A stretch of DNA of 64,000 bases from NCBI GenBank assembly GCA_963714015.1, contig OY970223.1, forward strand, positions 2,848,001 through 2,912,000, in the 5' to 3' direction. The notes under the pieces are model-generated. The model worked only from the letters and a program-made list of their open reading frames with translations, was not told the origin of the DNA and searched no databases. Origin of the DNA: Vulcanimicrobiota bacterium (lineage in GTDB: Bacteria; Vulcanimicrobiota; Vulcanimicrobiia; Vulcanimicrobiales; Vulcanimicrobiaceae). A program made the translations under genes and the position numbers. Below are positions 16,950-39,766 of the stretch, in pieces (the stretch's first letter is position 1; each line of letters opens with the position of its first letter).

Positions 16950-18203
16950 ATGGGAGTCGTGAATCGGGAAGCACCGGCGGTGGCGATATCGTACGTACAC
17001 GGCTACCGCGATCTGGAAATATTGCGCTTGAGCAATTGCCTGCGGCGAGACGGCGTTGATTGCGAAATCGACCAATACGAGCCTGCGCCGGAAACGGGTT
17101 GGGCGCGTTGGATGGCAGAGATGATGACGGAGCGCATCGTGCTCGTCGTGTGCTCGGAATTGTACAACCGGCGCTACCATCTTCGCGACTCGCCCGGAGT
17201 GGGACTCGGTGCGACGTTCGAGAGTGGTCTGCTCGTTCAGCGTGCTCTCGATGCGCAGGGGCGCAACAAGAGCATCATTCCGCTGCTTTTGGATTCGAAC
17301 GATGCTCGGTTCGTTCCGGATTTTCTCAAGGATGTGACGCGTTACGACTTAAGCCACGGCGGCGGCTACGAGGATCTGCTGCGTCGACTGACCAACCAGC
17401 CGGCCGTCCTGCGCCCTCCGTTGGGCACCGTTCCCCACCTTCCGCCAATCGTAGCCGATCCCGCTATGGCAACGCGCCGCAATCTCATTTTGTTTCAGTC
17501 CGAATCCTCCGGGTTTTTCGGCATGCCGCTCCTGGATGTCGAACGTGCCGAAAGCTTTCGCTTGACCGTCACGCCTGATGATTCGGCGGACGTCGCCAAA
17601 CTGCGCAGCCTCAAGAACGAACGCGGCCGCTTCCCGATCGCCTACGGATTGACGGCAGCCTTCGTTCGGCTGCGCAACCTCCGCGAGTTCATGCGAGACG
17701 CGCAAGAGCGCTTCGAACTGGACCTCGTCGAAGTTCCATTCAACAGCGGATTTGGTACCGAAATGTCTTACAACGGAATATCCGCAGACAAGATCGCGGA
17801 AATGCGTGCGCGCCGGATACTTCTGGACGAACCTTTGCCAAACGTTGGCGGCAGCGGATGGGGCGGCGATCTCAATCAGATGACTTTCGAGATGTTCGTA
17901 AGCGGAAGCTCCTCGAGCGGCGACCGCCTCGCCGTGAAATCGTCCCCTGTTCCGCCGCTTGTGCGGGCCATGTCCAACAGCAACGATACGGTCCCGGCAA
18001 CCAAATTGGTGTGCGTCATGCTGCTGATCCTGAGTGGTGCCGTCGAGCATATCTCGCGCCTTGAAATGTCGCTGGAAAGGGGCGATATGCGAATTGATTT
18101 TGAGGGAATTCGGCATAAGACGTACTCGAACGCCGAGCCGGCGCGTATCACGCTGTCGGGCGTTTGCCCGGTGAGTGGAACGGCGAACCAGTACACACAA
18201 TGA
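16950..18203 (+). CDS. SEFIR (TIR-like) domain protein
   Basis: ISYVH...LRRDGVDCEIDQYE...GWARWM...VLVVCSELY...GLGATFE. Confidence 0.85.
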   Translation: MGVVNREAPAVAISYVHGYRDLEILRLSNCLRRDGVDCEIDQYEPAPETGWARWMAEMMTERIVLVVCSELYNRRYHLRDSPGVGLGATFESGLLVQRALDAQGRNKSIIPLLLDSNDARFVPDFLKDVTRYDLSHGGGYEDLLRRLTNQPAVLRPPLGTVPHLPPIVADPAMATRRNLILFQSESSGFFGMPLLDVERAESFRLTVTPDDSADVAKLRSLKNERGRFPIAYGLTAAFVRLRNLREFMRDAQERFELDLVEVPFNSGFGTEMSYNGISADKIAEMRARRILLDEPLPNVGGSGWGGDLNQMTFEMFVSGSSSSGDRLAVKSSPVPPLVRAMSNSNDTVPATKLVCVMLLILSGAVEHISRLEMSLERGDMRIDFEGIRHKTYSNAEPARITLSGVCPVSGTANQYTQ

Positions 18204-18364: not shown

Positions 18365-18599
18365 GGGTATCCGTAATACATTGTTGGTCGGGCCGAGCGG
18401 CAGGCCCGGTAATACGACATGAATATCGCAACACATTGTTGACGGGTGCTCCAAGACATGATAGTTTAATATCGTAATCTATCGTTGGAGGAGCCGGTGT
18501 GACCGCAGCCGAGTTAACCGCTGTTGGGCGTAATTCCCAAATTGAAGATGCCGACTCCGACCCTTATTGGCACGAGGCCCGCCGCGACGGTGCTCATCC

Positions 18600-19952
18600 A
18601 TGAGCGGGAACATTCTCAACCTCCCGCAGTACCGCGTCGAGCACGTGGATGAAGGTGAACACGACTACCACGTTTACGCCGAGACGCTGCACCCTCGCGT
18701 CGTTTGCGAATGCGGCTCGCATGACGTGAGCCGGTGGGGGACGCACGAGCAGGTCGTCAGGGACTTACCGATGCACGGGAAGCGCGTCGGGATCTACCTA
18801 CGCACACGCCGCTTCCGTTGCAACGCTTGTGAGAAGACCGGTTTCGAGCGCCTTCCGGCTGTTTCTGAAAAGCGGGCAATGACGGAGCGTCTTGTTCGCT
18901 GGATCGGCGCGCAGAGCCTCAAGCGCACGTTTTCCTCCGTTGCCGAAGAGGTTGGCGTGACGGAAGGTACCGTCCGCAATATCTTCCGCGATCACGTTAC
19001 CGATCTGGAAACGCAGGTGCGGTTCGAAGTGCCGCGGTGGCTCGGGATAGACGAAATCCATATCATTCGCAGGCCGCGCTGCGTCGTCTCGAACATCGAG
19101 GCGAAGGCTATCGTCAATATCTTGCCCGACCGCAATAAGCGAACCGTTATGGCGTATCTGCACGCGATGAAGGGGCGAGGGCGGGTGAAGTATGTCGCGA
19201 TGGATATGTGGACGCCCTACCGCGATGCCGCCGCCGCCGTCTTGCCCGACGCGAAGGTCGTGATCGATAAGTTCCACGTCGTCCGAATGGCCAACGTGGC
19301 CATGGAGCAGGTGCGCAAGACCCTGCGGGCCCGGCTTTCGCCGAAAGAACGGCGGGGGCTCATGCACGATCGCTTCTTGCTGCTCAAGAGGGAGTACGAA
19401 TTGACTGCGCAGCAGCGGTTCCTTGTGAGTTCCTGGGCGACGCTGCATCCCGAACTAGGCGAAGCGCACCGGCTCAAAGAGCAGTTCTTTGCCATCTACG
19501 ACGCAGAGGACAGGCACGACGCCGTAGACCGCTACGGCAAGTGGGCAACGAGCATTCCGCCGTCCCTGAAGGCGGCCTTCTCCCCAATCACCACGGCTTG
19601 GCGCACATGGCACGACCCGATCCTCAACTATTTCGACCATCCGATCACCAACGCATACACGGAATCGCTGAACAATCTGATTCGCGTCATGAACCGGCTG
19701 GGGCGGGGCTATTCCTTCGAGGCGTTGCGGGCCAAGATTCTCTTCACCGAGGGGCTGCACAAGCACAGCAATAGGCGACCCAAATGGGAACGGCGCTCAT
19801 CACGGCGCGAGTCTGGCAAGACGTACATGTCGGCGATCATATCCTACGACGCGGCGGAGTTCAGCCGGCGCGCGTTTGAGGCAGAGGATGCCATCAACCT
19901 CGGCGTGGACATCGCAGCATTAACACGTCGAATCGAGGCCGGTCGTTTCTAA
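18600..19952 (+). CDS. ISL3 family transposase
   Basis: N-terminal zinc finger; LGIDE, VAMDMW, VIDKFHVV and TNAYTESLNNLIR motifs. Confidence 0.95.
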   Translation: MSGNILNLPQYRVEHVDEGEHDYHVYAETLHPRVVCECGSHDVSRWGTHEQVVRDLPMHGKRVGIYLRTRRFRCNACEKTGFERLPAVSEKRAMTERLVRWIGAQSLKRTFSSVAEEVGVTEGTVRNIFRDHVTDLETQVRFEVPRWLGIDEIHIIRRPRCVVSNIEAKAIVNILPDRNKRTVMAYLHAMKGRGRVKYVAMDMWTPYRDAAAAVLPDAKVVIDKFHVVRMANVAMEQVRKTLRARLSPKERRGLMHDRFLLLKREYELTAQQRFLVSSWATLHPELGEAHRLKEQFFAIYDAEDRHDAVDRYGKWATSIPPSLKAAFSPITTAWRTWHDPILNYFDHPITNAYTESLNNLIRVMNRLGRGYSFEALRAKILFTEGLHKHSNRRPKWERRSSRRESGKTYMSAIISYDAAEFSRRAFEAEDAINLGVDIAALTRRIEAGRF

Positions 19953-21943: not shown

Positions 21944-22166
21944 CGGTTCAAGACCATCTAGGATCTACTTCTGGAAACCTGGACCTGCACCTTTGCCTAG
22001 ATCGAACCACGGCGGCGAGGAGGGCCTTGTAGGCGCTTCTTGCCACACGGGATCAACACCGGACGAGGAAGACGACGTAAACTTCGGAACCGACATTTCA
22101 ACACTGACGCAGCGACGCGAAAATAATCGGTTCTAGTGCAGGATCAACGATAGAATCCGAATAGCC

Positions 22167-22940
22167 GAAATTTCTTCTTCAACGATTGCCAGCTCTGCTT
22201 CGACCTGTTGCTTTGATTTCGAATCTGCGCCGGACGACGCCCAACGAATTGCCTGCAAAAGATCCGTGAGGCCCTTTGCGTCGATGCCGGTTTGCGTGAT
22301 CGATTGCACGTTTACTTGGGATTCGCCCGAAACGTCGCCCCAGACGCCTACATTTCCGATCGAGCGAATGTTGTAGATAACAGGTGAGGTCTTCGCTTTG
22401 TTGGCCTCCGCGGGCGAGAAGCTAACGCCGCTCCCTGTGATGCCTTGCCGCTCCAGTTCGAGCGCCCAATCAAGAATGCGATCTCGAACGGCCTGAATTA
22501 CGCGCTCCATTTCAGAACGATCTACCATTATCCGGACATCAAGCGGTTCGCCCATGTTATGTGCCGCCGCATCCATCAACCACTGCGGCGTCCGCAACAT
22601 CAGCGTTCCGTCATCGGAGACTCTGATGGGCCATATCCTCAATTTGGCTGATGGGATTCCCAATTGGCTGAACGGACGCACGGTCGTTATCCGCTTGATT
22701 ATCAAAAATGACGGGACGCCACCCGAGCATGGGGTTCCACCAGCGTGCAACACCACGCACGTCGCGATACTTCGGAATGCTTGCGGCTGCCTTATACCCC
22801 GCTTGCTCGTGCTCGACCCAGTCCAGCGTATCGGAAAGCTGAAGCTTCGTCGCGACCAATTTCACTTTTCGCAAAAGGTCCACGACGCGAACGTTCGGAT
22901 CGAGACAACGGTTTTGGAGTTCTTCGACGATGCTTGCCAA
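22167..22940 (-). pseudogene. AbiTii-domain protein, N-terminal part (frameshift ~22625, IS-interrupted)
   Basis: SIVEELQ...DLLRKVKLVATKL...WVEHEQAGY...PKYR; ILDWALELERQGITG. Confidence 0.85.
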
Positions 22941-23349
22941 GCGGGCTTCCTCCGATGCGGCGGCGACGCGGCTGTTCCAGGGCGGCTTGTCGGAATCATT
23001 CTGGCCCAGCAAGCGAAATGCACGTCCTACCAGGTAATGGGTAGCGCTGTAGCCGCTACCCGGCGTCCTAGCATTGCCGCTGTCGCTCGCGCTACCGTTC
23101 CCGCGTTTAGATTGAATCACGGCGCGCCGATGATCCGACTTCGGGGGCGACGCTTTTCCCGAACCGCGTCGCAGCACATGGAGGGTAGGAGCGACGAATC
23201 CGTGCTGGACCGGATTTTCTGGAAGCCCGTGCGCGGCGACATCGTCGCCGCCTAGATCCCAGTCCGGTGTAGCCGAAGGTACGTTGCGGCAAGGTGCGCG
23301 ACAAGAAGTTCCGTCGGCGCGTAGCGTCCTTGTCGGGTAGCGTCGATTA

Positions 23350-23894
23350 AACCGTCCATATGAACTTCGCGTCAAACGAAAATTTTTTTGTGTATTGAAC
23401 GTGCCGGGGCCTGGAAGGGATATAAATCTGCGCGGATTTTCAAGCGAGAGCGCTTCGTCTGGGTGGCCTTCCGTTGAACTTGGTCGCTGCCGCCACAAGT
23501 TCTTCGTAGAGCCGCTCGTTTCTGAACGACAGGTGCGCATATATGCGAGGATCTTTTCCCGCAGCCACGTTGGAACGGCGCGGAGTTTGGCCAGAGCCAG
23601 CATCACCTTCTGCACCACAACGGCGTGGACTTTTGATCTACGATGACATCCTGTGTTGCGGTCTTTCGAAGCGGCTTTTCGCGGATGCGGATGAGCGCGA
23701 TGCCGGCATTCTCAAGAGCGTCGTTTTTCCGAAGATCATCAGCCTCTCTTCCGGCATGCCAGTACGATCCGTCGTATTCGATGCCTGGTGCCAGAGAGGG
23801 GATGAAGATGTCTACTTGGTGTCTCGCAAAGCGGCGTCCGTGTTGAGCGTCCGCAAAAACGCTCTTTAATTCTACGCCGCCCGGCAAGGAGATG
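23350..23894 (-). pseudogene. Fragment of a zinc-ribbon-associated Vsr/DUF559-like endonuclease
   Basis: VDIFIPSL..GIEYDGSYWH...DLRKN...LIRIRE; truncated at both ends. Confidence 0.7.
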
Positions 23895-24077: not shown

Positions 24078-25770
24078 CTACAGCATGGCTTCTCTGTCTT
24101 GCTCAATCGCTTCAACGACGGACGCAGTATCAACGTTCACCCGAAGAACAACCTGTGACGAATCCTGAGAGACCGCATCGGCCGCGTGCGCGAGCTGCGC
24201 GGGCCAGTCGCTGATCTGCGCGTACAGCGACTTCACCAGCGCCGCCACCGCGGCTCGCGTACGGGAAACGGTCGTCGGCGGCGAGGCCGCGGAAAGGGTC
24301 CGTTCGGCGTCAATGATCTCTTCGAGAAGCGTCGCGTACCGCAACACCAGCAGCTCCGTTGAACCGGTGGGCGATGCGGCGTGCTCCAGCGCCGGCCCGA
24401 GTTCGGCGAAGGCGGCGCGAAAGCCATCCATCGCCTGGGACACGAGCGCCATGTAGGCAGCCGCGTCCACCGCCTTTGCGGGAGCGGCCTGCGCCGGGCG
24501 CGACGATCGCCCGTCCACTTCATTTCGAAGACGCTGGGACAGATCATGCCAGTAAGCCTTGATCGCATCCTTCGGCCCGCGCGTCGTCAGGTTGACTGTC
24601 AGCGTTGCGGGGGCCGACGTCGGTCGGTTGGAACGCAGCGGAGCCACGGCCTGCGCGGCGGGCCCGTCCGCAGTCCGTTGCGTCGCTCCCTCACCACCGT
24701 GCGCGGTGCGCATCCGTTGCAACGCCGCGAGGAACTCATCGGCGGCTCCTGTTCGCGACAGCTCGATGTACCCTCGCACGCCGGTTTCCGACGAGAACAG
24801 CACGTCCTGGTACATCACTACCGGCATCTGCCGGTTGTTCGAGAAGCGCCGATCCGGAGCGCCACTCTTATTCACGTACCTCCACGTCGAGCCGACGATC
24901 TTCGCGTCACGGGGAACCGCGCCGTCCTCCACGAACCTGCGCTCGGACGCGGTCGCGCGAAACCGCTCGTACGACAGCGCCCCGATGCCCCCCGCGTTCG
25001 TTATGAACACGCGGTCCGGAAGAAAGTAGAACGCGTCGCCGGCGAGCTTCAGACTTGGGATGGCGACGTTCGTCTTAAGGAACGGGGCGCGGTCTCCGCC
25101 GACCACCAGCGGACGCCGATCCACAAGGTCCGTCGCGCCGGCGTTGTGCTTGTAGTCCGTGGTCGTCTGCTTCGAGGCTGACGCTCCACGCACGGGCGCA
25201 CGAGCCGATCTGCATGACGCCCTCGTACAGCGCGCGAAACGCGTCTTCGACGGCCGGTTCCAAATCGTACATAACCACGACGCTTCTCGCGCGTTGCTCT
25301 AACGCGTGCAGCGGATACGCGCCAATCACGCCAATCGCAACGATCGCCAGACCCAGGACGGCGAAGTGCGGAAGAACGCTCCAGATGGCGATGCACCAAA
25401 GTACCATCCCCATGCCGAACCACGGCGGCGTCTTGCTTTTACGCCGAATTTCGTCTAGGAGTGATTCGGCGTCCGAATCGGAGATCTCCGACGCGGGCGC
25501 GCTCTGGATCGCGTCTCCAGTCTCGGTCTGGGCGACCGGCGGCGGAGCCGAACCGTTTGACGGAACCTGGACTTCCGCCGGCCGCGACGATGATCTGTTG
25601 AAAAGGTACTTCCGGTAATACAGGCCCTCGCGACCGGCATGGACGTACATGCCGCGTGGCCCGCTTCCGATCCGAAAGCCCGTGACGCCCCCGGACACTC
25701 CGATGCCGCTCTTCGAAAGATTGAAGCGAATCGGACCCACCCGAAGACTCTTACGGATGTAAAAGCCCAT
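24078..25770 (-). CDS. DUF4236 domain membrane protein (frameshift ~25175)
   Basis: MGFYIRKSLRVGPIRFNLSKSGIGVS; TWRYVNKSGAPDRRFSNN. Confidence 0.85.
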
Positions 25771-26214
25771 GCGAAACGCTTCTTCCCTCGTCGGGAGATC
25801 CTTCGCGGGAGTTTGCGCCCCTCTTAATCGGCGGCATGCTCGCCAGCTTTTTACGGTCGCGAGAGCGGATCGGCATCGCTCCCTCGGCCCCGGTGACGCC
25901 GGCGGTCGGCATCGGACCATACGGCATCCAGGTGGAAGAACTTTTTTCTGCGCCAGTATCGCGGCTAGCGCTGCCAATAGGGGTTGGAAGCAGCCAAATC
26001 TTTCAGGACCATCAGCATGGAAGCCGCCGACACATCAAAGCCGCAGTTGACCGAGATTCAGCGGTACGATCAGCGTAAAATTTTACGCGAGCAGAATGCC
26101 GGTGAAGCCTCCGAGTTCGCGAAGCGCGTTCATCGGGGCACCTGAACCAATACGGAATCCCGTCCACGACTTAGACTCGGCGCAAACGGTGACCAAACGA
26201 TGGACGCACTCCCA

Positions 26215-26933
26215 CTACTGGGGATATTCGGAGTGTATCAGTTCGCGATCACTATCAGACAGCCTCACGGTTTAGGCCGGTCGAAAAGCCGTCAAGGGTC
26301 CACGACGCCGGGATAGGATACATCATTATGGATTTCGCATCTACCGGCGTCGACTGTACCTTGTCAGGATCGTATCGGTCGAAAATGTTGCGTTGAATGG
26401 TCGACTCGTCCCAGTTGTTAGGCGGCTGAGAAAGAACGGCAATAACTGCGGAGCGATCCCACCGAATAGGATGCGTTGGATTCTGATGCTCGTGGATTAG
26501 TCCGAAAGCGTGTCCGAATTCATGCAAAACGACCGAACTGAGGGTCGCGTCATCGCTTGAAGAATCCAGCCAACCGAAGTTCATCGTTGGCTCGCCAGTA
26601 GGAACGTCCTTGCACAGCGTTCCAATATACGACCAGGACCCGTGGCCTTGTTGGAAGCGGATGCGGACATCGGGCGTACCATTTGAGACGAAACGCAGCG
26701 TCAAGTTAGCCATTTTCGGGCCTATCCATTGTATCGCAGACTTCTGGACCCGCTTGCAAACCGCTGGATCGCCGTCCATGAATCCCGCAGTAATGATCTC
26801 CGCTGGTTCCCATTTGTTCTCACGCAGCAGTGCAGCTTTTGCGCCCTGCGTAAATCTGCGTTGAGTATGGCGAGAGGCGCGGCGGCATAACAAGCATGCA
26901 GAAGCGGGTTGCATTGGGTTCCGAGGCGCTCAT
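26215..26933 (-). CDS. Metzincin (M12A/astacin-like) metalloprotease (two apparent frameshifts)
   Basis: HEFGHAFGLIHEHQ zinc motif and SIMMY Met-turn; ATGA overlap with the upstream gene. Confidence 0.9.
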
Positions 26934-28516
26934 GTGCTCGCCGACGCGCTCTGCCCCGGCGCGCCAAGCAGTTCATTTATCGCCACACGGGGCACATCGA
27001 GTTCCATGGACAGTGTTCGCCGGTCTTCATCAGAACTAAACTCCGATCGAATCTCTTGCGGCACCGCAGATTCAATCAAACGTAACGGATCGTGCCAGTG
27101 CGAGAATTGTGGCGTCGATTCCAGATACTCGTCTGCGAGGTCATGCTCTTCTTCATCGGTGCCGTCCTCACGGGACTCTTTGTACTCGTAATCGATACGG
27201 GGATTAAAATAATATAATAGCGGAGCGAAAACGGAAGAAGCCATTTCTCTCCAAGCCAAAAATGGTCCTAACGGCACCATCTCCGCAATGCCACGCCATG
27301 TATTGATAGGCAAGATCGTCGGCTCAGCATTACTTGCCTTCACAAGCAACGTCCAGTCTCTGCGCAACAACGGTGGAATAGTAAATGGAGTGGTGGCGCG
27401 CAGTCCAAAATCGCCGCATTCCAGCGACAATGCCTCCACATCGGGATGGCCATTTCCGAGCAGAAAACGCAGATTTCGAATGACTTTGTCGTACAATGCG
27501 TCGTTGCGTGCCCATGCATACTTCTCCGGATGGAGAAAGACCGACTGGCTGCCTTTTGCTGAGGACTTCGACACGTAACTTTGAGCGGCATTATCGTACG
27601 TGCGTGCCATTAACATCAAGTGAGCGCCGTAAATGCCAAGCATCGGGTTCACAAATTTTTGCGTGAGGAGACCGTCTAGCAGTTCGCCGACCCGATCCGA
27701 AAACAGGGCGCGTTCTTCGGTGAGAGCAAGACGGACGATTTCCGCGTCCTGAAGCATCGAATCTGACGGGTCGAAGCCATCGCCGATTTTCGCCATTGAC
27801 ACCGCCATGTCGGAAAGCATGGCAAACGTTTGACCATGAATGTCGGGCGTCCATCCGGCGGGTTCATCATTATCTGACGGTAGGCTCCTGGTCAAAAGGA
27901 ATATCTGAGTCTGCCACCCGGGACTAGCATAAACGGTCTGTTCAATAGCGGTCTCGTCGCTGTACTGGCTCCGAAGTATATATGCGCCACGATCCAGGGC
28001 GACGGTGCATGCGGACCATGGATCGTCCGTTAAGTCGAGAACGCCCTGCTTGCCATAGTCGGCGATCAAAGTACCGTCTTGGCTGTGCAAGGTGATCGAT
28101 TTCCCAGGAGCGTTACGCGACTCGCTACGAGAGCCGACGCTGTAATGACGCGCCATTACGAAAACCTGGGAGATCCCTTGTCCGGCTGATACGTGGATCA
28201 TTTGCGATTCCCGGCGGGCCGCCTCGATTTGGTATTCATGAGTTTCCGCTGTGCCATCAAGGGGCATAGGCGTCAGAATTTTCGGTGCTTGAAGATGCAC
28301 CGTGGCGTCCTCGTTGTACAATCCTACAGTCTCGTTTTCGTGCCTTCCAAGCCGCGTCTTTATTTTGTAGATGCCCGGCACGGCCCTCGTGCTGAGGTTT
28401 CCTATCCCTCTTGCGAGAAGTTCGTAGGAAGCCGTAATCAAGAAGATCTCAGCAAAAGGATTGTCAACTGAAATGGCAATCTCTATAGACGATGCCTTGC
28501 TCGCAGTTGTTGTCAT
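26930..28516 (-). CDS. Caspase-associated protein of unknown function
   Basis: 528-aa ORF translationally coupled to the caspase; KFVNPMLGIYGAHLML motif. Confidence 0.8.
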   Translation of the reverse strand: MTTTASKASSIEIAISVDNPFAEIFLITASYELLARGIGNLSTRAVPGIYKIKTRLGRHENETVGLYNEDATVHLQAPKILTPMPLDGTAETHEYQIEAARRESQMIHVSAGQGISQVFVMARHYSVGSRSESRNAPGKSITLHSQDGTLIADYGKQGVLDLTDDPWSACTVALDRGAYILRSQYSDETAIEQTVYASPGWQTQIFLLTRSLPSDNDEPAGWTPDIHGQTFAMLSDMAVSMAKIGDGFDPSDSMLQDAEIVRLALTEERALFSDRVGELLDGLLTQKFVNPMLGIYGAHLMLMARTYDNAAQSYVSKSSAKGSQSVFLHPEKYAWARNDALYDKVIRNLRFLLGNGHPDVEALSLECGDFGLRATTPFTIPPLLRRDWTLLVKASNAEPTILPINTWRGIAEMVPLGPFLAWREMASSVFAPLLYYFNPRIDYEYKESREDGTDEEEHDLADEYLESTPQFSHWHDPLRLIESAVPQEIRSEFSSDEDRRTLSMELDVPRVAINELLGAPGQSASAST

Positions 28517-29540
28517 ACTGAGAACGTAAGCACTACGGTGCCGTTGTCTTGTGCGGCGTAGTTTCCGGGCTTAAGCTTCACTGTCGCTCGTCCGTCTTCA
28601 ACCCTTGCTGATGCAACCCTTATTGCGGGGTTGCCACCCAAAATCTGTAGCAGCGTCCCATTAGGCACTCCAGTCTACACTTAGGGTTTTCGATTCCAAG
28701 TCACTTGCCGGGGCGAACAGCAGTTTGTCGTCAAAGCCGAAGTCAGGTTCCATCGAAACGATCCTACTCTTTCGGTCGTTGTCAGGAAGATAATCTTTCA
28801 TACGATTGATGAGATAGCGCTTGAGGCTGGTGCTCGTGACGTTGCCGTACTCATCCGCCGCCACATCCAAGCCTCTTAGCAATGCATATGTGAACACGCC
28901 GTGAACTAAACCATCCGGCATCTTCGCCTCGACGGACACGAGTCTTGAACCGCGCGGAATACGCTGAGAACACTCGGCAAGCCGAAGAATTGCCGTGCAC
29001 CCGACGGAAACTCGGCAATTGCGGAACGACCGTCATCTGGTAGTTCATGCAGCAGTCCATCCACAATACGAACTCATCGAAGTACGCGGCGTTATAGAAC
29101 CAATCCAACCAGGCAGTAGCGTACACGTGCTCAGTTTGGACGCTGGTGGCATTGGCCGCGAATATCGCGCCGTGGGCACGAGCAGGCGCAAATCCATGAC
29201 CGCTCATATACACGTAGAGCCGCCGGCCGACGGGCGGGTTCGCGTTGGCGTTTACCTGTGCCAATGATTCTAGGCGTGCGAACTCGCCAACAACGTTCGC
29301 GGTTGCGGGCACGGCCGTCGCAACCGAGTAATTCGGCGGCAAGGGGTCAGGCGAACAAACAAGCCTCGCTCGCGTGGGATCCAATCCGCCTTTTCGCGGA
29401 TGAATTAACCATTCGTGGATAGCAACTGCATCGTTGATGGGTCCCCGCAAATCCTGTGGCTCGGCAGGCGTCGAACCAAAGCCTGGATAATTCGCGATTC
29501 CCACTACGATTGCGTAGTCGGTCGGATTCAAGGCCGGCAT
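28513..29540 (-). CDS. Caspase-like peptidase C14 (frameshifts ~28945 and ~28670)
   Basis: YAIVVGIANY, LRGPINDA, MSGHG (His), WMDCC (Cys), GVFTYALLRGL. Confidence 0.9.
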
Positions 29541-29622
29541 TGGCGTCAGTGCGCGGACCGCTGCTTATTGCACATCGTCGGCTTCATGCCCAGATGACGC
29601 GGACCATGCGCGCTGCTCCGAC

Positions 29623-30120
29623 TCAAAACCATGGCTCTAAAAATGCCCGGCGCGGACGCGCGGGGCTTTGGATCATTGCAGCCGCTCCTGGGGGGCCTCC
29701 TCCGGGCGCGGGTGCGCCGGCTGGAGCGCCGAGGCTCGCCCTGGGATTGCCCACGCCGTTTGCATTTCCAGCGACAGATGTTGCGCCAGACGCCGTTGCA
29801 AAGATCAGAAAGCCATTTAGCACGCCCATCAGATAGTCGACGCCGCCTGGCGGAGGCCCGTCCGGAACGGTGAGCGTCGGCGCAACGTACACCCCGATAC
29901 ATCCTACTAAGACCGACAGAGCCAGGCCAAGCCATCGCGGATTGAAGTTGAAAGCGCGCTGCAAACCATTTGAGACAACAAATACGATTGTGCTCGCGCT
30001 CGCCAGCGACGCAAAGCTAATTAAGGTGAAGAACTGACTCGAAGCTGTACCGCCCTCCGTGGGCGTCGTGGTACTCGTTTGTGATTGAAGAAACGCAATC
30101 ACGAAATGATAGTGCATCAT
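29623..30120 (-). CDS. Small membrane protein (~3 TM) with a Pro/Gly-rich tail
   Basis: Three hydrophobic segments; overlaps the upstream stop. Confidence 0.75.
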   Translation of the reverse strand: MMHYHFVIAFLQSQTSTTTPTEGGTASSQFFTLISFASLASASTIVFVVSNGLQRAFNFNPRWLGLALSVLVGCIGVYVAPTLTVPDGPPPGGVDYLMGVLNGFLIFATASGATSVAGNANGVGNPRASLGAPAGAPAPGGGPPGAAAMIQSPARPRRAFLEPWF

Positions 30121-31226
30121 GACACCTCCGATCGCAACGTTGTTGCAGTCCGTTTCCGGGTCGCGACATTGGCTTGAATCTGTGCCTTCCCTAGCGCTTC
30201 CAAGATCGGCTTTATTTCCCCTACCCCGTAGAGTTTGCCTGGTTCGAGCGGGTTACGGGCTGGATGCAGCGGAACGATAATGTCGCTAGCGTCGTCTGCG
30301 CTCTTGAGCCACAGCACCACGACGTGTATGCTGGGCATCCTTAAGAGACGACTCTCTCTCAGCGTGTGGTCGGCCCGCAAACGCGAACGCGTGTCACTTA
30401 TCCGCTGTAAAGTATCACCGACTTGCGGACCGCTAGTGATAGTTGCGTCTCGAAACGCGCCATCGACATCGTATACATCGATAGCGTAGGGACCATCTGA
30501 AGACTGGCTGAGCTGCTGCCAACCTACCGAAACGGCCTTGTCCAAGTTAAAATCGTTCGCTAAATCAGCAAGTCGCATGGCATAAATTTGGCTTACGCTT
30601 TGTCGATCACCCTTGCTAGGCGCTCGCGCTCTTCGCTTCTTAGGCGATCTTCGTGGTTTGGCCGTGAAGTTGTCAAATGTGGAAGCCACTGCGGTTGGCG
30701 GCATCGCGTGCGCAATCGAATCTTGGGCTACGTTTGCGAATGTCTGCGTGTAGTAGGTCGATACCCAACTCCAGCTTCCAAGATATTTATTGCAGAAGTC
30801 ATCGTAACCGCACGGTGCGATAGTGCCGTGTTCGGGATCGCAGATTTGTAGCGTCGCCGGAGACGTTGATGCCGCCGAGATTACGACGAAGTGATCGGTG
30901 CCGTCAAAGTCTACGCCGGCCGCGACAGGGCGGCCGGCTTGCAACTCTTGCACGATCTGGTCTACCGGAATCGTTCCGGACACCGGTGCGTTGAGGTTCT
31001 GCGTACTGGATAGCGCGGCATCGAGTGCGGCCGGCTTGTTGCATGCTGCGTTCTTGGGGCAGCAGCCGGAAATTTGGAGAACTTCTTGGGCGAGGCTACA
31101 CTGCGACCAAGGGCTTCTGTTGGGATCGTAAAACCGTGACACGCTCACCGCAACCGCAGCCCAACACCACTGGTCTTGGAGTTGCTGTTGGATGCTAAAC
31201 GCTACGCTGGCCTCCCAGTTGCTCAT
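30117..31226 (-). CDS. Papain-fold cysteine peptidase (C39-like) fused to an uncharacterised C-terminal domain
   Basis: QQQLQDQWCWAA (Cys), DHFVVI (His), ICDP (Asp); C-terminal RLLRMPSIHVVVLWL domain. Confidence 0.85.
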   Translation of the reverse strand: MSNWEASVAFSIQQQLQDQWCWAAVAVSVSRFYDPNRSPWSQCSLAQEVLQISGCCPKNAACNKPAALDAALSSTQNLNAPVSGTIPVDQIVQELQAGRPVAAGVDFDGTDHFVVISAASTSPATLQICDPEHGTIAPCGYDDFCNKYLGSWSWVSTYYTQTFANVAQDSIAHAMPPTAVASTFDNFTAKPRRSPKKRRARAPSKGDRQSVSQIYAMRLADLANDFNLDKAVSVGWQQLSQSSDGPYAIDVYDVDGAFRDATITSGPQVGDTLQRISDTRSRLRADHTLRESRLLRMPSIHVVVLWLKSADDASDIIVPLHPARNPLEPGKLYGVGEIKPILEALGKAQIQANVATRKRTATTLRSEVS

Positions 31227-31242
31227 TTTGAAAAGCGGCCAG

Positions 31243-32851
31243 TCAAGGCTTTTTGGGTGTTTGTCCGGACGTAGCAGTACCTTTCGTGTTCTTAGTGGAC
31301 GTTTGAGGTGACTTTGTGCTGTTGCCGTTTTCGGTTGGAAAGATCGGAATGCTAAAGGCGAAGCCGAATCGGTTCGTAGCCTGTGACGTCGTCGAAATGC
31401 TAGTTCCGGAGGGCACGATTTGATTTACCATGTAGCCGTTCAGCGAGTTAACATCGGCGCGAAATATGCCTAAACTAAAATAGAAGGATTGATTTAGAGA
31501 GGCGCTCAACCCGATCATGCCGCTGGCGAACTGTTGCTGAGATGTGGTAATAGCAAACGTTGCGTGCAACGCCCAAGGGCTCGGGTTGCTTGTAAGGCGA
31601 TAGTGCACCATTTGCGTCATCAGGAATGGTTGGCCCGAGTCTTGCCTATTCGGCTGGATTTGCGTCACGTTGCTCGTGCCGGACATCGTTGTGCCGGTTT
31701 TCCACGATCGATTCGGAATGTTGCTATAGCCGATGCCGTGTGTAGATGTGATTCTGCTAGGCCCCACAAGAACCAGCAAATCCTTTTTAAATACGGCCGC
31801 ATCGGAAGATGAACTGTCGGACGTATCCGAGTTGTTGTCGCCTGTCGTTGCGCCGGTTGAAGGCGTCGAGCCTTGACCTCCTCCCGTTGCGCCGCCGGAT
31901 GTCCCTGCGTCGGTGGAGGACTTGTCTTGGGCGTCTGTCGTCGCGCTGGTTGTCGACGTCTTGTTCACTGCAGAACCCGAAGCGGCGGCGCTTTTGACGA
32001 GCGTTCTATCGATCGCAACGAATGATACGGTTGCGTTGTCGGCGTACGCGCCTTTCGGGCACGACAATACTTTCTCGGGGAGAGTAAAATCCGCTGGTTG
32101 AATCGCGCTTAATACGGGCTGCCAGGCAATGATCGCCTTTATGGATTGATTTATAGCGTTGCTTGTGTCGTCTGAATCCGATTGGAATCCCGAAACCTCT
32201 TTGCTTAGGTCGCTTAAGACGCTTTTTTGCTCGGCCGTAACGCCTGCGCTGCCTTGAGCGAGTCGAACAGCTGCTACAGCAGCGTTTATCTCTTTACTCG
32301 GCCAAACAAAACTGGTTTGCGTACGCTTTATGGTCGCGGCTTCGTCATGGGCTTGTTTAACGATGGACGAGATGTCGGCATTCTCGTCGTCGGCTTCCAC
32401 CACGATCTGTTGAACGGCCGTAGCACGCGGATTCAGGGAATTGCGCAAGGTATCGATTGCGTTCTCTGCCGCCTGCACGGCCTTGACCGCTTCATCGAAG
32501 TTACTACCGGCACTTTTGCCGTGCGTCTGTTCGCTGCCGCCGACCACTCCGCTTGTGGCGGACTGGCCGAGATCGCCGAACGGGTTGATATCCGTCGGCA
32601 GAGAGCAGTCTGTGTATAACGCTTACTTGAGCCGACGCATATCGAAGCGCATTGTAGCGAACGGTAAGCGATGCCGGACATATTACCTGTTCGTTTTGAT
32701 CCGGCGTCGCGGCATTTACAAAAATCGTTTCCGGATCAGCCGCGGAGGCTGGCTCAACGAAACACGGCAGGAACGCTAGAATGGCCGCGCCGGCTAACAA
32801 AGTGCGTTGCAAGTGCACGGAGGGAGCCCGGGCCAAATAAAATTGAAGCAT
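31243..32851 (-). CDS. Secreted protein with a helical region, Ser/Thr/Gly linker and beta-rich C-terminus (frameshift ~32600)
   Basis: Signal peptide LLAGAAILAFLPCFVEPASA in the upstream frame; 434-aa downstream ORF. Confidence 0.7.
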
Positions 32852-33135
32852 CCTTACACCCCTAAAAAGCGCTTGACACGTTGTAACCTTATACATACGC
32901 CGCTCGGGGACTGCGCAAGAGGGCCAAATGGCTCATTGTGATGCGAGAGCGCCATTGCCGCGGCTTGTAAAAGAAGCAAACCGTATGCATCTTGCGGCCG
33001 AACGGTTGCTTGTATGCTAACTTTTCGCGCCGTGACGGTCATGCGTTTCAACTTTTTGATGCGAAGTAGTAAATGAGCGGTAATGTGCCGACTCCATCCG
33101 CATACGCAGCGTCTGCGAAGATGCGCGGCACTTGT

Positions 33136-33436
33136 CGATGGATGCGCAAAACCGGCGGTGCTCTCTCGTGACCACGACATCGGTGAGCACATCACCATCC
33201 ATCGTGGGCGTGAAAATGTCCCCAGCGAAATGCATCCTCCAGGCGACAAAAACGCCCTCGCACTGCCGGCACAACAGCGTTTCTTTCGGAGCGTCCTGAA
33301 GACGCCGATCTGGCTGCGTCCAGTTCCGAAGGAACGGGTTTGGCGAATCCGCCTTCTGCCGCTTCGCGACAAATTGCGGGATGATGTGGCTGACTTCGAG
33401 TTCGCGGTCGTTCCGGCAAAGTCTGCAAACTGGCAT
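33136..33436 (-). pseudogene. N-terminal fragment of an HNH-like zinc-finger protein
   Basis: CRLC...SHIIPQF...LLCRQCE; similarity ends at FCASI. Confidence 0.7.
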
Positions 33437-38062: not shown

Positions 38063-38803
38063 TCATGTTGCAGCGCCTTCGTCGCCACAGACGCCTTCGT
38101 GTCCATCAATCTCCATAGTGGACTGTTCATCGCTGATGAATTTCTTGATAGCGAGGCGGCCAACCATCCGCATCATTAGGACGTCGGCCGTTCCGCCTAT
38201 CACCGCGCCGGCGAAGGGGGCGACCCTACCCAGATTCACGATTCCCCGAGTGCCGGCTTTCGTCACGATTCGCGAACCGCCGATGCGGTTGATGGTCGTC
38301 AAGAGCGCGCGCGGGATCTTCTTAACGCCTTTAACTGCGAGCGACTTCGCAACCCCGACGGCGGCACGCTTCCCGGGTCCGGCAAGGGAGTCGCCCGCGA
38401 CGAGCGCAAGAACGAACGCCTTCACGTCCGGACTCAGCGGATCTTCGCCCGCAAGCACCGCGATGGCCGCCACAGTCGTCGCCTGAAGCACCAGCGCGGC
38501 CGGAACCGATACTGCGATGCTTGCAAGGCCGCCGAGTCCGGTCAAGAAGCCGGCGCTGCCGGCGTAAGTGCATTGCGTTCTAAGCAGTCGGCGCGCACGC
38601 TCATCGAGCGTTCCAGGTTTTGCGCGGTGAAATTCGCCGATCTCGCGTGCACCCGGAAAGCCCGGGAAACCGTCCACAATCAACCCGTACAGGGCGTTTA
38701 CTGGTTCGCCTGCGCGTGAATTCAAGAATTGGAGCAGCAACGGAGCGTTGATCTGAGGATTGTTCGAACCGTCCCGGTATCGCTGCTTTTCTTCTTCCGC
38801 CAT
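38063..38803 (-). CDS. EcsC family protein
   Basis: GSAGFLTGLGG...TKAGTRGIVNLGRVAPFAGAVIGG. Confidence 0.8.
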   Translation of the reverse strand: MAEEEKQRYRDGSNNPQINAPLLLQFLNSRAGEPVNALYGLIVDGFPGFPGAREIGEFHRAKPGTLDERARRLLRTQCTYAGSAGFLTGLGGLASIAVSVPAALVLQATTVAAIAVLAGEDPLSPDVKAFVLALVAGDSLAGPGKRAAVGVAKSLAVKGVKKIPRALLTTINRIGGSRIVTKAGTRGIVNLGRVAPFAGAVIGGTADVLMMRMVGRLAIKKFISDEQSTMEIDGHEGVCGDEGAAT

Positions 38804-38990
38804 GCCGTCTCGGTTTGCCCGTCGGAGTACGATCCTACGCTGCCGGATCTGCCCGCCCGCCGTGCACCGATGGGGTTTCCGGCATGCGGTTACAAGCTCG
38901 TTTGTTTTTCCCGCGGGCTCAGCGCGGGAAAGATGCTCGAAGCGACGCTGCGGCAGAGCAGGCATGGCGCGTTGGAAAGGATGGGGTTGG

Positions 38991-39274
38991 ATGCTTAAGG
39001 TGGGACAGGTGGAGTACGGATTTCTAAAGTTGAAGATTTTTTGGTGAGGATTCGTCATCTCGACGGCGCGGATGTCAGATCCGACCGGACCGGCATGCCG
39101 ACCTGGCCGTACGAGCGCGCGGCGAAGGACGCCTGGAACGTGGCGGACTGGAAGCGCGAGCGCTTCAAGCCCACGTATCCGGGATTCGAGGTTGAAGTCC
39201 TGGACGGGGATGGCAATCCGGTCCAAGGCAACATGAAACTCGAGACCGTCCGTGACTCGTACGCGGAGGATTAG
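38991..39274 (+). CDS. Small hypothetical protein (frameshift ~39040)
   Basis: DVRSDRTGMP..PYERAAK...YPGFEVEVLDGDG...TVRDSY. Confidence 0.65.
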
Positions 39275-39302
39275 ATCTAGGATCCGCGTTCGAACGGCGT
39301 TG

Positions 39303-39766
39303 ATGTTGTTCGCCGCAGCGATTTGCGTGCCAGTCTGTGTTTCGGCGCAACAAGACGCCACTAGTTATTCGTCGCCAGAGCTGGCGTGTGGGGCCGAGCG
39401 TTTGCACGCGCAGACCGCGCCGTCGACGCGCATGATCTCTACGGCAAAAGCGGAGGCCGTAAAACGCATGCCGTTGCGGAGGTTGATTCGGCGGTGCATG
39501 CGCTACGCCTGGCCGTGGCTCAATGCCTCAATCCTCCCTCCATGGCCCACGTGACCTTCCGCAACTGATTCCTCATAACGTACAACACGGTGTACAAACA
39601 CTTCACGAACCACGCGGACGCGGGAACGACTGGATTCGTGCTGGCGGATCAGATGCTTGCGAAGTGCATCCAGGACTTGCTCGGCACGCCGGAAGGAGCG
39701 GCGTGCCAGATACGCTTGCGCGCCAACGCGCGGATCGCCAAGTTCGTCGATTCGGACGGTACCTGA
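39303..39766 (+). CDS. Secreted hypothetical protein (several frameshifts)
   Basis: Signal peptide; coding-like segments in successive frames. Confidence 0.4.

Follow-up and report, generated by a model that had tools for sequence, protein, structure and literature searches.

The window analyzed here is a 64,000-nucleotide (nt) stretch of the genome of a soil Vulcanimicrobiota bacterium (GenBank assembly GCA_963714015.1, contig OY970223.1, positions 2,848,001 to 2,912,000; C1:2848001-2912000 of genome G000 in our collection). Six predicted genes lie between positions 26255 and 32896 of this window, all on the minus strand, and encode in the direction of transcription a secreted protein, a C70 papain-like peptidase, a small membrane protein, a caspase-like protein, a protein of 528 amino acids (aa) and an astacin-like metzincin (Table 1). 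A first-pass annotation of this stretch had proposed that the six genes form one undescribed proteolytic cascade, in which the 528-aa protein or the membrane protein serves as substrate or effector. Comparison with related loci points to a smaller unit. We favor, with a probability of roughly 55%, a reading wherein a MALT1-like caspase, an obligate partner (the 528-aa protein) and a swappable enzyme, preceded by the membrane protein, form an intracellular conflict or defense protease module, and the two remaining genes are passengers.

The six reading frames are real, and alignments confirm that none of the three proteases has lost a catalytic residue, both as previously claimed. True ATGA overlaps occur at two of the five junctions only, between C70 and the membrane protein and between the caspase and the 528-aa protein, one fewer than had been counted; the other three gaps measure 16, 82 and 15 nt. 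Consensus matches for promoters and terminators occur at chance frequency (7 versus 4.6 ± 2.6 and 9 versus 9.3 ± 3.0), so the case for co-transcription is limited to the shared strand, the short gaps and the two overlaps. This multi-protease arrangement has no name as a system in PADLOC, Pfam or NCBIfam, no gasdermin, NLR or CRISPR gene stands beside it in the window, in line with the annotation, and the same three databases hold no family for the 528-aa, membrane or secreted proteins.

Table 1. Genes of the locus and nearby features, given as positions in the 64,000-nt window.
Feature	Position	Strand	Remarks
Secreted protein	32504-32896 + 31243-32547	(-)	One gene in two open reading frame (ORF) pieces; frameshift-split near 32500-32560
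C70 papain-like peptidase with extra C-terminal domain	30117-31226	(-)	Pfam PF12385
Small membrane protein	29623-30120	(-)	ORF; start overlaps C70 stop (ATGA)
Caspase-like gene	28513-29540	(-)	Two frameshifts; stop overlaps start of 528-aa gene (ATGA)
528-aa partner protein	26930-28516	(-)	ORF; no named family
Astacin-like metzincin	26255-26914	(-)	Pfam PF01400
TIR-domain protein (bSEFIR match)	16950-18203	(+)	417 aa
ISL3 transposase	18567-19952		Adjoins the bSEFIR-type TIR gene
AbiTii-family gene	22133-23618	(-)	Profile N-half in 22611-23618, C-half in 22133-22756
DUF4236 protein	25075-25977	(-)	277 nt downstream of the metzincin
Small Cys-rich ORF	33017-33436	(-)	Directly upstream of the secreted-protein gene
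EcsC-family protein (PDC-S29 match)	38063-39361	(-)	PADLOC candidate defense model

The caspase and the metzincin

The caspase piece in the window matches the PADLOC 'caspase' model (E = 4.8e-11), and Pfam Peptidase_C14 scores above its cut-off in two orthologues, L003 and L041. The hallmarks of the C14 superfamily, a caspase-hemoglobinase fold and a His-Cys dyad, are both present, and His115, Asp162 and Cys164 are each retained in 54 of 54 aligned sequences. The fold was modeled on the intact orthologue from locus L001, which is 45-49% identical to the window caspase over two aligned segments. This model has a predicted local distance difference test score (pLDDT) of 93.5 and resembles human MALT1 with a C-terminal immunoglobulin (Ig)-like β-sandwich; its top Foldseek match is the caspase-Ig3 portion of MALT1 (E = 1.9e-10). 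An acidic S1 pocket is a feature of MALT1 and of metacaspases and goes with cleavage after Arg or Lys. By analogy, Asp162, placed two residues before catalytic Cys164, would imply Arg/Lys specificity for the caspase described here.

The metzincin is recognized by the Pfam Astacin model (E = 3.6e-8; 33.8 bits versus a cut-off of 22.5). Its zinc site, HEFGHAFGLIHEH, contributes H131, E132, H135, H141 and E142, which are retained in 34 of 34 aligned sequences, and its Met-turn reads SIMMY, with M197 and Y199 present in 33 of the 34. The protein thus carries the HExxHxxGxxHE zinc site and the Tyr-containing Met-turn of the astacin (M12A) family. The glutamate of the 'HEH' element is an astacin feature linked to N-terminal maturation. 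Also, an N-terminal Cys within a WCFAW-type motif precedes the first invariant Trp by 22-33 residues in 33 of 34 sequences and could act as a cysteine-switch latency element.

The nearest NCBIfam model to the metzincin is SCO6992 (AbsR1) of Streptomyces coelicolor, matched with E = 1.8e-31 over residues 81-207. A metzincin-like domain is common to both proteins, and the 109 bits are far under the cut-off of 650. AbsR1 is reported as a regulator of antibiotic production with β-glucuronidase activity; we know of no link between AbsR1 and caspases.

A conserved caspase-partner core with a swappable third enzyme

A word-indexed search with the 528-aa protein returned 93 homologues, and a profile of the family matched 2793 representative clusters at E values up to 0.001, among them 1645 at E values up to 1e-30. 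The caspase-partner pair is thus widespread, with about 2800 clusters at 50% identity distributed over many phyla and found on rhizobial plasmids. A scan of species-representative genomes yielded 55 related loci carrying the family, which span Chloroflexota, Acidobacteriota, Bacteroidota, Gemmatimonadota, Proteobacteria, Planctomycetota, Actinomycetota, Myxococcota and others. In 53 of these loci the gene immediately before that of the 528-aa homologue, in the same orientation, encodes a caspase homologue, and in the remaining two the partner gene begins at a contig edge. Natural fusions of caspase and partner also occur (P0058, P0061, P0062, L015 and L053, plus a 901-aa protein on a Sinorhizobium plasmid).

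The third member of the module varies. A metzincin is present in 30 of the 55 loci, where with few exceptions it immediately precedes the caspase, and an α/β-hydrolase-like protein of about 510 aa takes its place in 13 others, directly upstream of the caspase. No locus carries both. Neither enzyme was seen in 12 loci, four or five of which are cut by contig ends. Annotated RefSeq plasmids repeat this pattern: Sinorhizobium terangae (plasmid pCB3126_2) carries an 'M12 family metallopeptidase' with the 901-aa fusion, and in Mesorhizobium onobrychidis a 1449-aa partner-trypsin-PLD protein is accompanied by a 'caspase family protein' and an 'alpha/beta hydrolase'. The usual order is metzincin, caspase, partner, and by this comparison the order caspase, partner, metzincin in the window is a rearrangement.

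The partner family is further diversified by additions to its C terminus. Among these are PLD with trypsin, trypsin with lipase, α/β-hydrolase, PNP_UDP, pYEATS, 3-keto-disaccharide-hydrolase-like, TPR, receiver and histidine-kinase ATPase domains, and in one 1810-aa protein a TIR-CHAT-STAND addition. The last example (L044:9461-14890) consists of the partner module followed by TIR, CHAT and an AAA_16/STAND-like ATPase, and is encoded behind a hydrolase-like gene and a caspase.

An unnamed conserved family of about 320 aa was also noted in 10 of the related loci (L003:11578-12537, L006:11550-12527, L007:11597-12610 and seven more), located directly downstream of the partner gene in eight and upstream of the module in two. 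Its members share the motifs RFSVSFQRTLR, PQNYIVCP and QKIYPDPYG and are absent from the window. No Pfam match was obtained for this family, and a PDB sequence search with its profile gave nothing below E = 0.1. The idea that it might be a metallo-β-lactamase (MBL) nuclease resembling CanC of the Canu system (see below) was rejected for lack of an HxHxDH motif. When the accessory families of the related loci were searched for in the window, none was found, bar one weak match at chance level.

The 528-aa protein as a predicted caspase-binding scaffold or sensor

A structure model of the 528-aa protein (pLDDT 85.3; predicted template modeling score 0.85) contains two transthyretin/Ig-like β-sandwiches at about residues 6-81 and 110-210, a helical TPR-like domain at about 250-415, a disordered acidic linker at 430-474 and a small helical C-terminal domain at 477-517 with a nearly invariant Pro509. 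A PDB sequence search with the family profile gave nothing below E = 0.1. In a fold search, the model matched Csx29, which we do not take as homology, and the best partner clusters in a protein atlas are all labeled 'hypothetical', with Y4kD_C at 0.83 serving as an unconfirmed lead only.

Structure prediction of the 528-aa protein and of the caspase complex had been suggested by the first-pass annotation as a check. For the complex, the L001 caspase was modeled together with its own partner, trimmed to residues 1-440. This complex model scored 0.71, versus 0.00 for the best of three controls, and the same score mark is reached by 116 of 157 solved complexes and by 2 of 215 mismatched pairs. 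Separate runs share at least 54% of contacts, and the partner pLDDT is at least 78. The predicted interface joins the Ig-like domain of the caspase (residues 301-344) with the first sandwich of the partner (residues 30-71) and also takes in caspase residues 167-168, which in the L001 pair adjoin Cys165. The model supports binding between caspase and partner and agrees with the existence of natural fusions between them. The fusions, the complex model and the variability of the C-terminal domains suggest that the 528-aa protein binds the caspase as a scaffold or sensor and is not itself the terminal effector, and the corresponding half of the earlier substrate-or-effector proposal loses ground.

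A different role can be envisioned for the same architecture. The caspase might free the C-terminal helical domain of the 528-aa protein, or other fused signaling domains, and thereby alter gene expression or physiology, with the metzincin acting as a processing enzyme. The disordered acidic linker that precedes the small conserved helical domain would suit such a release, as would the receiver and histidine-kinase ATPase domains of some homologues, and type III CRISPR-linked cascades offer known examples of regulators that a protease sets free. However, no Pfam DNA-binding domain is found in the 528-aa protein at E values up to 0.1, and most fused or adjacent domains (PLD, nuclease, lipase, TIR, PNP_UDP) are degradative effectors. 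The patchy distribution of the family across phyla, including plasmids, and the location of the window genes in a defense island also fit poorly with a regulatory switch, which we consider rather unlikely.

The membrane protein and its association with caspases

The membrane protein was previously described as having about three transmembrane (TM) helices. Kyte-Doolittle analysis recovers two strong hydrophobic segments; a third is weaker and was judged by eye. The protein therefore has two or three TM helices, followed by a predicted cytoplasmic tail that ends in RRAFLEPWF. Its family comprises 52 clusters, all annotated as 'hypothetical', and 42 of the 52 retain a C-terminal motif of the form basic-F..(P)W(F). 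This conserved basic-FLxPWF tail is a candidate site of cleavage or docking. The protein is not a member of EACC1 by Pfam (no match at E values up to 0.1), and a whole-genome search with PF19953 at E values up to 1 gave nothing at its locus. In the protein atlas it lies near phage-holin clusters at 0.84-0.86, an unconfirmed lead only.

A metagenome scan for the membrane family yielded 24 loci. In 10 of these (L081-84, L087-90, L093 and L096, which include two near-duplicate pairs) a caspase-family protein of about 900 aa is encoded within a few bases downstream. Of the other loci, three are cut off at the gene itself, and the upstream neighbor is a trypsin-like peptidase in two and an Endonuclease_NS protein in one. 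The weak matches among them (L099-L104) have no protease nearby except by chance. The profile of partner-linked caspases recognizes the 900-aa caspases with E values of 1e-12 to 2e-19, and the partner profile detects no partner-like region in them at E values up to 10. In two relatives, the gene for the membrane protein immediately follows that of a subtilase (L073) or immediately precedes that of a 711-aa CHAT protease (L074). These contexts support the assignment of the membrane protein to the caspase, and this part of the earlier substrate-or-effector proposal has gained from the comparison.

The second of these relatives (L074:5218-10939) encodes in a row a 551-aa secreted low-complexity protein, a β-propeller-like lipoprotein, the membrane-protein homologue and the CHAT protease. 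This layout echoes the secreted protein, membrane protein and caspase of the window, and the two secreted proteins have no detectable sequence similarity.

The C70 peptidase and the secreted protein as probable passengers

The C70 peptidase matches Pfam PF12385 with E = 6.9e-9 (36.2 bits versus a cut-off of 19) over profile positions 7-140 of 141. A papain fold with a Cys-His-Asp triad, as expected for AvrRpt2-like enzymes, is present: the Cys lies in WCWAA, the His in DHFVV and the Asp in CDP, with the Cys retained in seven of eight aligned sequences. Several cysteines are conserved in this domain. The C-terminal domain of about 190 aa is rare, and all five homologues found besides the protein itself span the N-terminal domain only.

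In the secreted protein, the piece encoded upstream contains a hydrophobic segment at residues 29-50 followed by a Y(N/D)xxRYxSA motif, and the downstream piece of 434 aa comprises a coiled-coil-like region, a Ser/Thr/Gly-rich linker and a β-rich C-terminal domain. Homologues occur in 4 of 301 genomes of the phylum, including G000 itself, with tblastn matches to L075 and L076. Directly upstream of this gene lies the small Cys-rich ORF, which shows faint HNH-like matches (E = 0.07).

Neighborhood analysis seeded with the 528-aa protein, a check put forward with the original six-gene proposal, argues against a unit of six. The C70 peptidase, the membrane protein and the secreted protein have no match in the 55 partner loci, so the set is not conserved for three of its six genes. 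The C70 peptidase and the secreted protein likewise have no match in the 24 membrane-family loci, two-domain C70 relatives occur in G006 and G011 without any other gene of the six, and in G089 a C70 gene stands in a row with an ORF that resembles the C70 C-terminal domain and with a secreted-protein homologue. We read these two genes as a separate pair, passengers upstream of the caspase module. A cascade in which the papain-like, the caspase-like and the metzincin protease work one after another, with the membrane protein or the 528-aa protein as their target, does accord with the single strand, the short gaps, the overlap of the C70 stop with the membrane-protein start and the retained catalytic residues, and also with the occurrence of the membrane family beside other proteases (subtilase, trypsin and CHAT) in relatives. 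Export of the secreted protein, set against the lack of signal peptides in caspase, partner and metzincin, adds to the evidence of the related loci, and we judge the six-gene cascade very unlikely.

A signal-like hydrophobic segment is present in the secreted protein and in none of the caspase, 528-aa, metzincin and C70 proteins. Since the caspase, the partner and the metzincin lack signal peptides, intracellular action is expected for them. The same observation bears on the idea of a secreted or surface-directed protease-toxin system that would act against other cells or serve nutrition. The C70 (AvrRpt2-like) and astacin families include secreted enzymes, one gene of the six does encode a signal-peptide protein, and the conserved cysteines of the C70 domain would suit an exported enzyme. 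However, four of the six proteins have neither a signal peptide nor a hydrophobic segment, and no secretion-system genes were seen beside the module in the window or among the scanned neighbors of related loci. Such a system is most unlikely.

Frameshifts in the locus and in the host genome

Three frameshifts were located, one in the secreted-protein gene and two in the caspase gene. The two shifts in the caspase lie near 28936-28947 and near 28665-28680, and every segment aligns to intact orthologues. The two pieces of the secreted protein represent one gene, as its N-terminal signal peptide and Y(N/D)xxRYxSA motif are common to homologues of 568 and 586 aa (L075 and L076).

The host genome is one closed contig of 3.56 Mb and scores 89.6% complete, versus 97% for closed relatives. 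Among 15 conserved genes chosen from relatives, five are split across frames in this genome and 10 are intact; the split genes contain 6 frame changes over about 22 kb. Because conserved genes are split in the same way and completeness is low, assembly error (indels) is the most likely explanation for the three frameshifts, and any gene prediction in this genome should allow for frameshifts. The AbiTii-family gene nearby is also split, into two overlapping ORFs that each hold one half of the profile (Table 1).

The locus might instead be a decayed remnant, a pseudogenized piece of island cargo with real frameshifts that is functionless in this host. Three frameshifts within 6.7 kb, two of them in the caspase, together with the split AbiTii neighbor, would be expected of such a remnant, and the shifts do not lie in obvious homopolymer runs. 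Yet every frame segment is open and well conserved, the catalytic residues are intact, and 5 of 15 conserved genes elsewhere are split alike in a genome of reduced completeness. Decay is improbable.

Genomic context

The module resides within a defense island. The TIR-domain protein of the window is a bSEFIR match in PADLOC (E = 1e-31), the AbiTii match has E = 9e-24, and the EcsC-family protein matches PDC-S29 with E = 6e-48. Neighbors in related loci include NACHT-FGE-sulfatase STAND proteins on both sides of the module (L030 and L033), a PD-(D/E)XK nuclease and McrBC, and trypsin-Endonuclease_NS fusions adjoin the module in L008, L022, L028, L051 and L052. This context points to conflict systems, of which it is typical. 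The DUF4236 protein (E = 1.6e-13), encoded downstream of the metzincin on the same strand, shows no tie to the module in related loci.

Proposed function of the module

We propose that the partner docks on the Ig-like domain of the caspase and reaches towards its active-site face, as predicted by the complex model, and that it would keep the caspase inactive while serving as a sensor or scaffold. A trigger such as phage infection would switch the caspase on. With low confidence, we suggest that the active enzyme would then cut proteins encoded alongside it, namely the latent metzincin, the tail of the membrane protein or both. Cleavage would damage the cell and result in abortive infection or growth arrest.

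Several observations weigh against this proposal. The metzincin gene is downstream of the partner in the window and upstream of the caspase in most loci. The gap between the membrane-protein gene and the caspase gene is 82 nt, versus 4 nt or less elsewhere, and the start of the membrane-protein gene overlaps the C70 stop, so it is translationally coupled to C70 rather than to the caspase; its family also has no match among the 55 partner loci. Some partner homologues bear receiver or histidine-kinase ATPase domains, which suit regulation as well as defense. Finally, both the caspase fold and the complex were modeled on the L001 orthologue and not on the frameshifted copy of the window.

A more specific version of the mechanism would make the caspase the gate of a double effector. 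Held by its Ig/TPR partner until infection is sensed, the enzyme would cut the basic-FLxPWF tail of a holin-like membrane protein and also remove the WCFAW cysteine-switch segment from an astacin-like zymogen, and the cell would die from joint damage to membrane and proteome. Taken as a whole this version is unlikely; if true, it would mirror in bacteria the logic of initiator caspases and would bring to light two effector types and a sensor family (~2800 clusters), all of them new.

The broader proposal of a defense module has consequences of its own. If it is true, the principle that a caspase activates a latent enzyme would reach beyond nucleases and include metalloproteases, lipases and hydrolases, possibly also small membrane proteins, and a tractable sensor-protease complex would be gained. 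Cultured carriers exist in Sinorhizobium terangae, Mesorhizobium onobrychidis and Cupriavidus campinensis, where the module is directly testable.

Comparison with known systems

Caspase-based bacterial immunity is experimentally recent and includes gasdermin systems, type IV Thoeris, Craspase and Canu. Full-text literature searches on caspases with astacin, metalloprotease or defense returned no description of the trio. In gasdermin-protease systems and in type IV Thoeris, which combines TIR with a caspase-like protease, a caspase likewise is reported to stand beside a putative membrane-acting or degradative effector in defense islands. The TIR/bSEFIR gene of the window is 10 kb away and outside the module, and sequence searches of the window proteins with Pfam and PADLOC gave no gasdermin match. 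The CATRA ternary system, which we take to consist of CATRA-C and CATASP beside a caspase, is not indicated either: whole-genome searches with PF20270 (CATRA-C) and PF20271 (CATASP) gave no match in the window.

The closest experimentally tested system is the anti-phage system Canu (CanABC) of Klebsiella aerogenes. As described (PMC12799240), CanA is a MALT1-like caspase with an Ig-like domain, CanB co-purifies with the caspase and CanC is an MBL pro-nuclease that the caspase activates; TPR and Ig-like domains are reported for Canu loci. The MALT1-like caspase with a C-terminal Ig-like domain is found here as well, and the complex model makes a caspase-binding partner, as CanB is in Canu, plausible. 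Judged from plasmid size, CanB is probably much shorter than the 528-aa protein. The third gene differs, in that Canu has an MBL-fold nuclease whereas the module described here has a metzincin or an α/β-hydrolase. Pfam gave no match to MBL/Lactamase_B or another nuclease in the six window proteins and none to MBL among the neighbors scanned in related loci.

Kaur et al. (2020; PMC7159879) describe, in the relevant sections, α/β-hydrolase-caspase pairing within VMAP ternary systems, two-gene EACC1-caspase systems and trypsin-NucA systems, and all three themes recur around the module. The partner family and its pairing with a metzincin are not described in those sections. A constant module combined with variable effector domains is common to the VMAP ternary systems and to the loci examined here. 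In the former, as far as the same sections go, the caspase always has a neighboring hydrolase gene, whereas a hydrolase-like gene is found in 13 of our 55 loci; the partner belongs to a different, unnamed family, and the hydrolase gives way to a metzincin in the window and in 30 of the 55. No Pfam match to VMAP-C, MoxR or vWA was obtained in the six proteins or in the larger window ORFs, and none to AAA/MoxR in the genes that follow the partner in related loci.

EACC1-caspase systems, in the relevant passages of the same paper, have a small TM protein encoded 5′ of a caspase gene whose C-terminal regions vary, and the membrane family likewise precedes the 900-aa caspases in 10 of its 24 loci. 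The EACC1 protein has one TM helix, whereas the membrane protein here has two or three and no Pfam EACC1 match, and those passages do not mention a basic-FLxPWF tail. The NCBIfam model of the EACC1-associated caspase (NF047832) gives 24.4 bits with the window piece and 43.1 with the L001 orthologue, versus a cut-off of 140.

The earlier description of the locus as an undescribed cascade is thus too strong, since its architecture is close to Canu and to the hydrolase-caspase and EACC1-caspase arrangements. On the basis of these comparisons, we regard the module as a variant of known caspase-based conflict systems.

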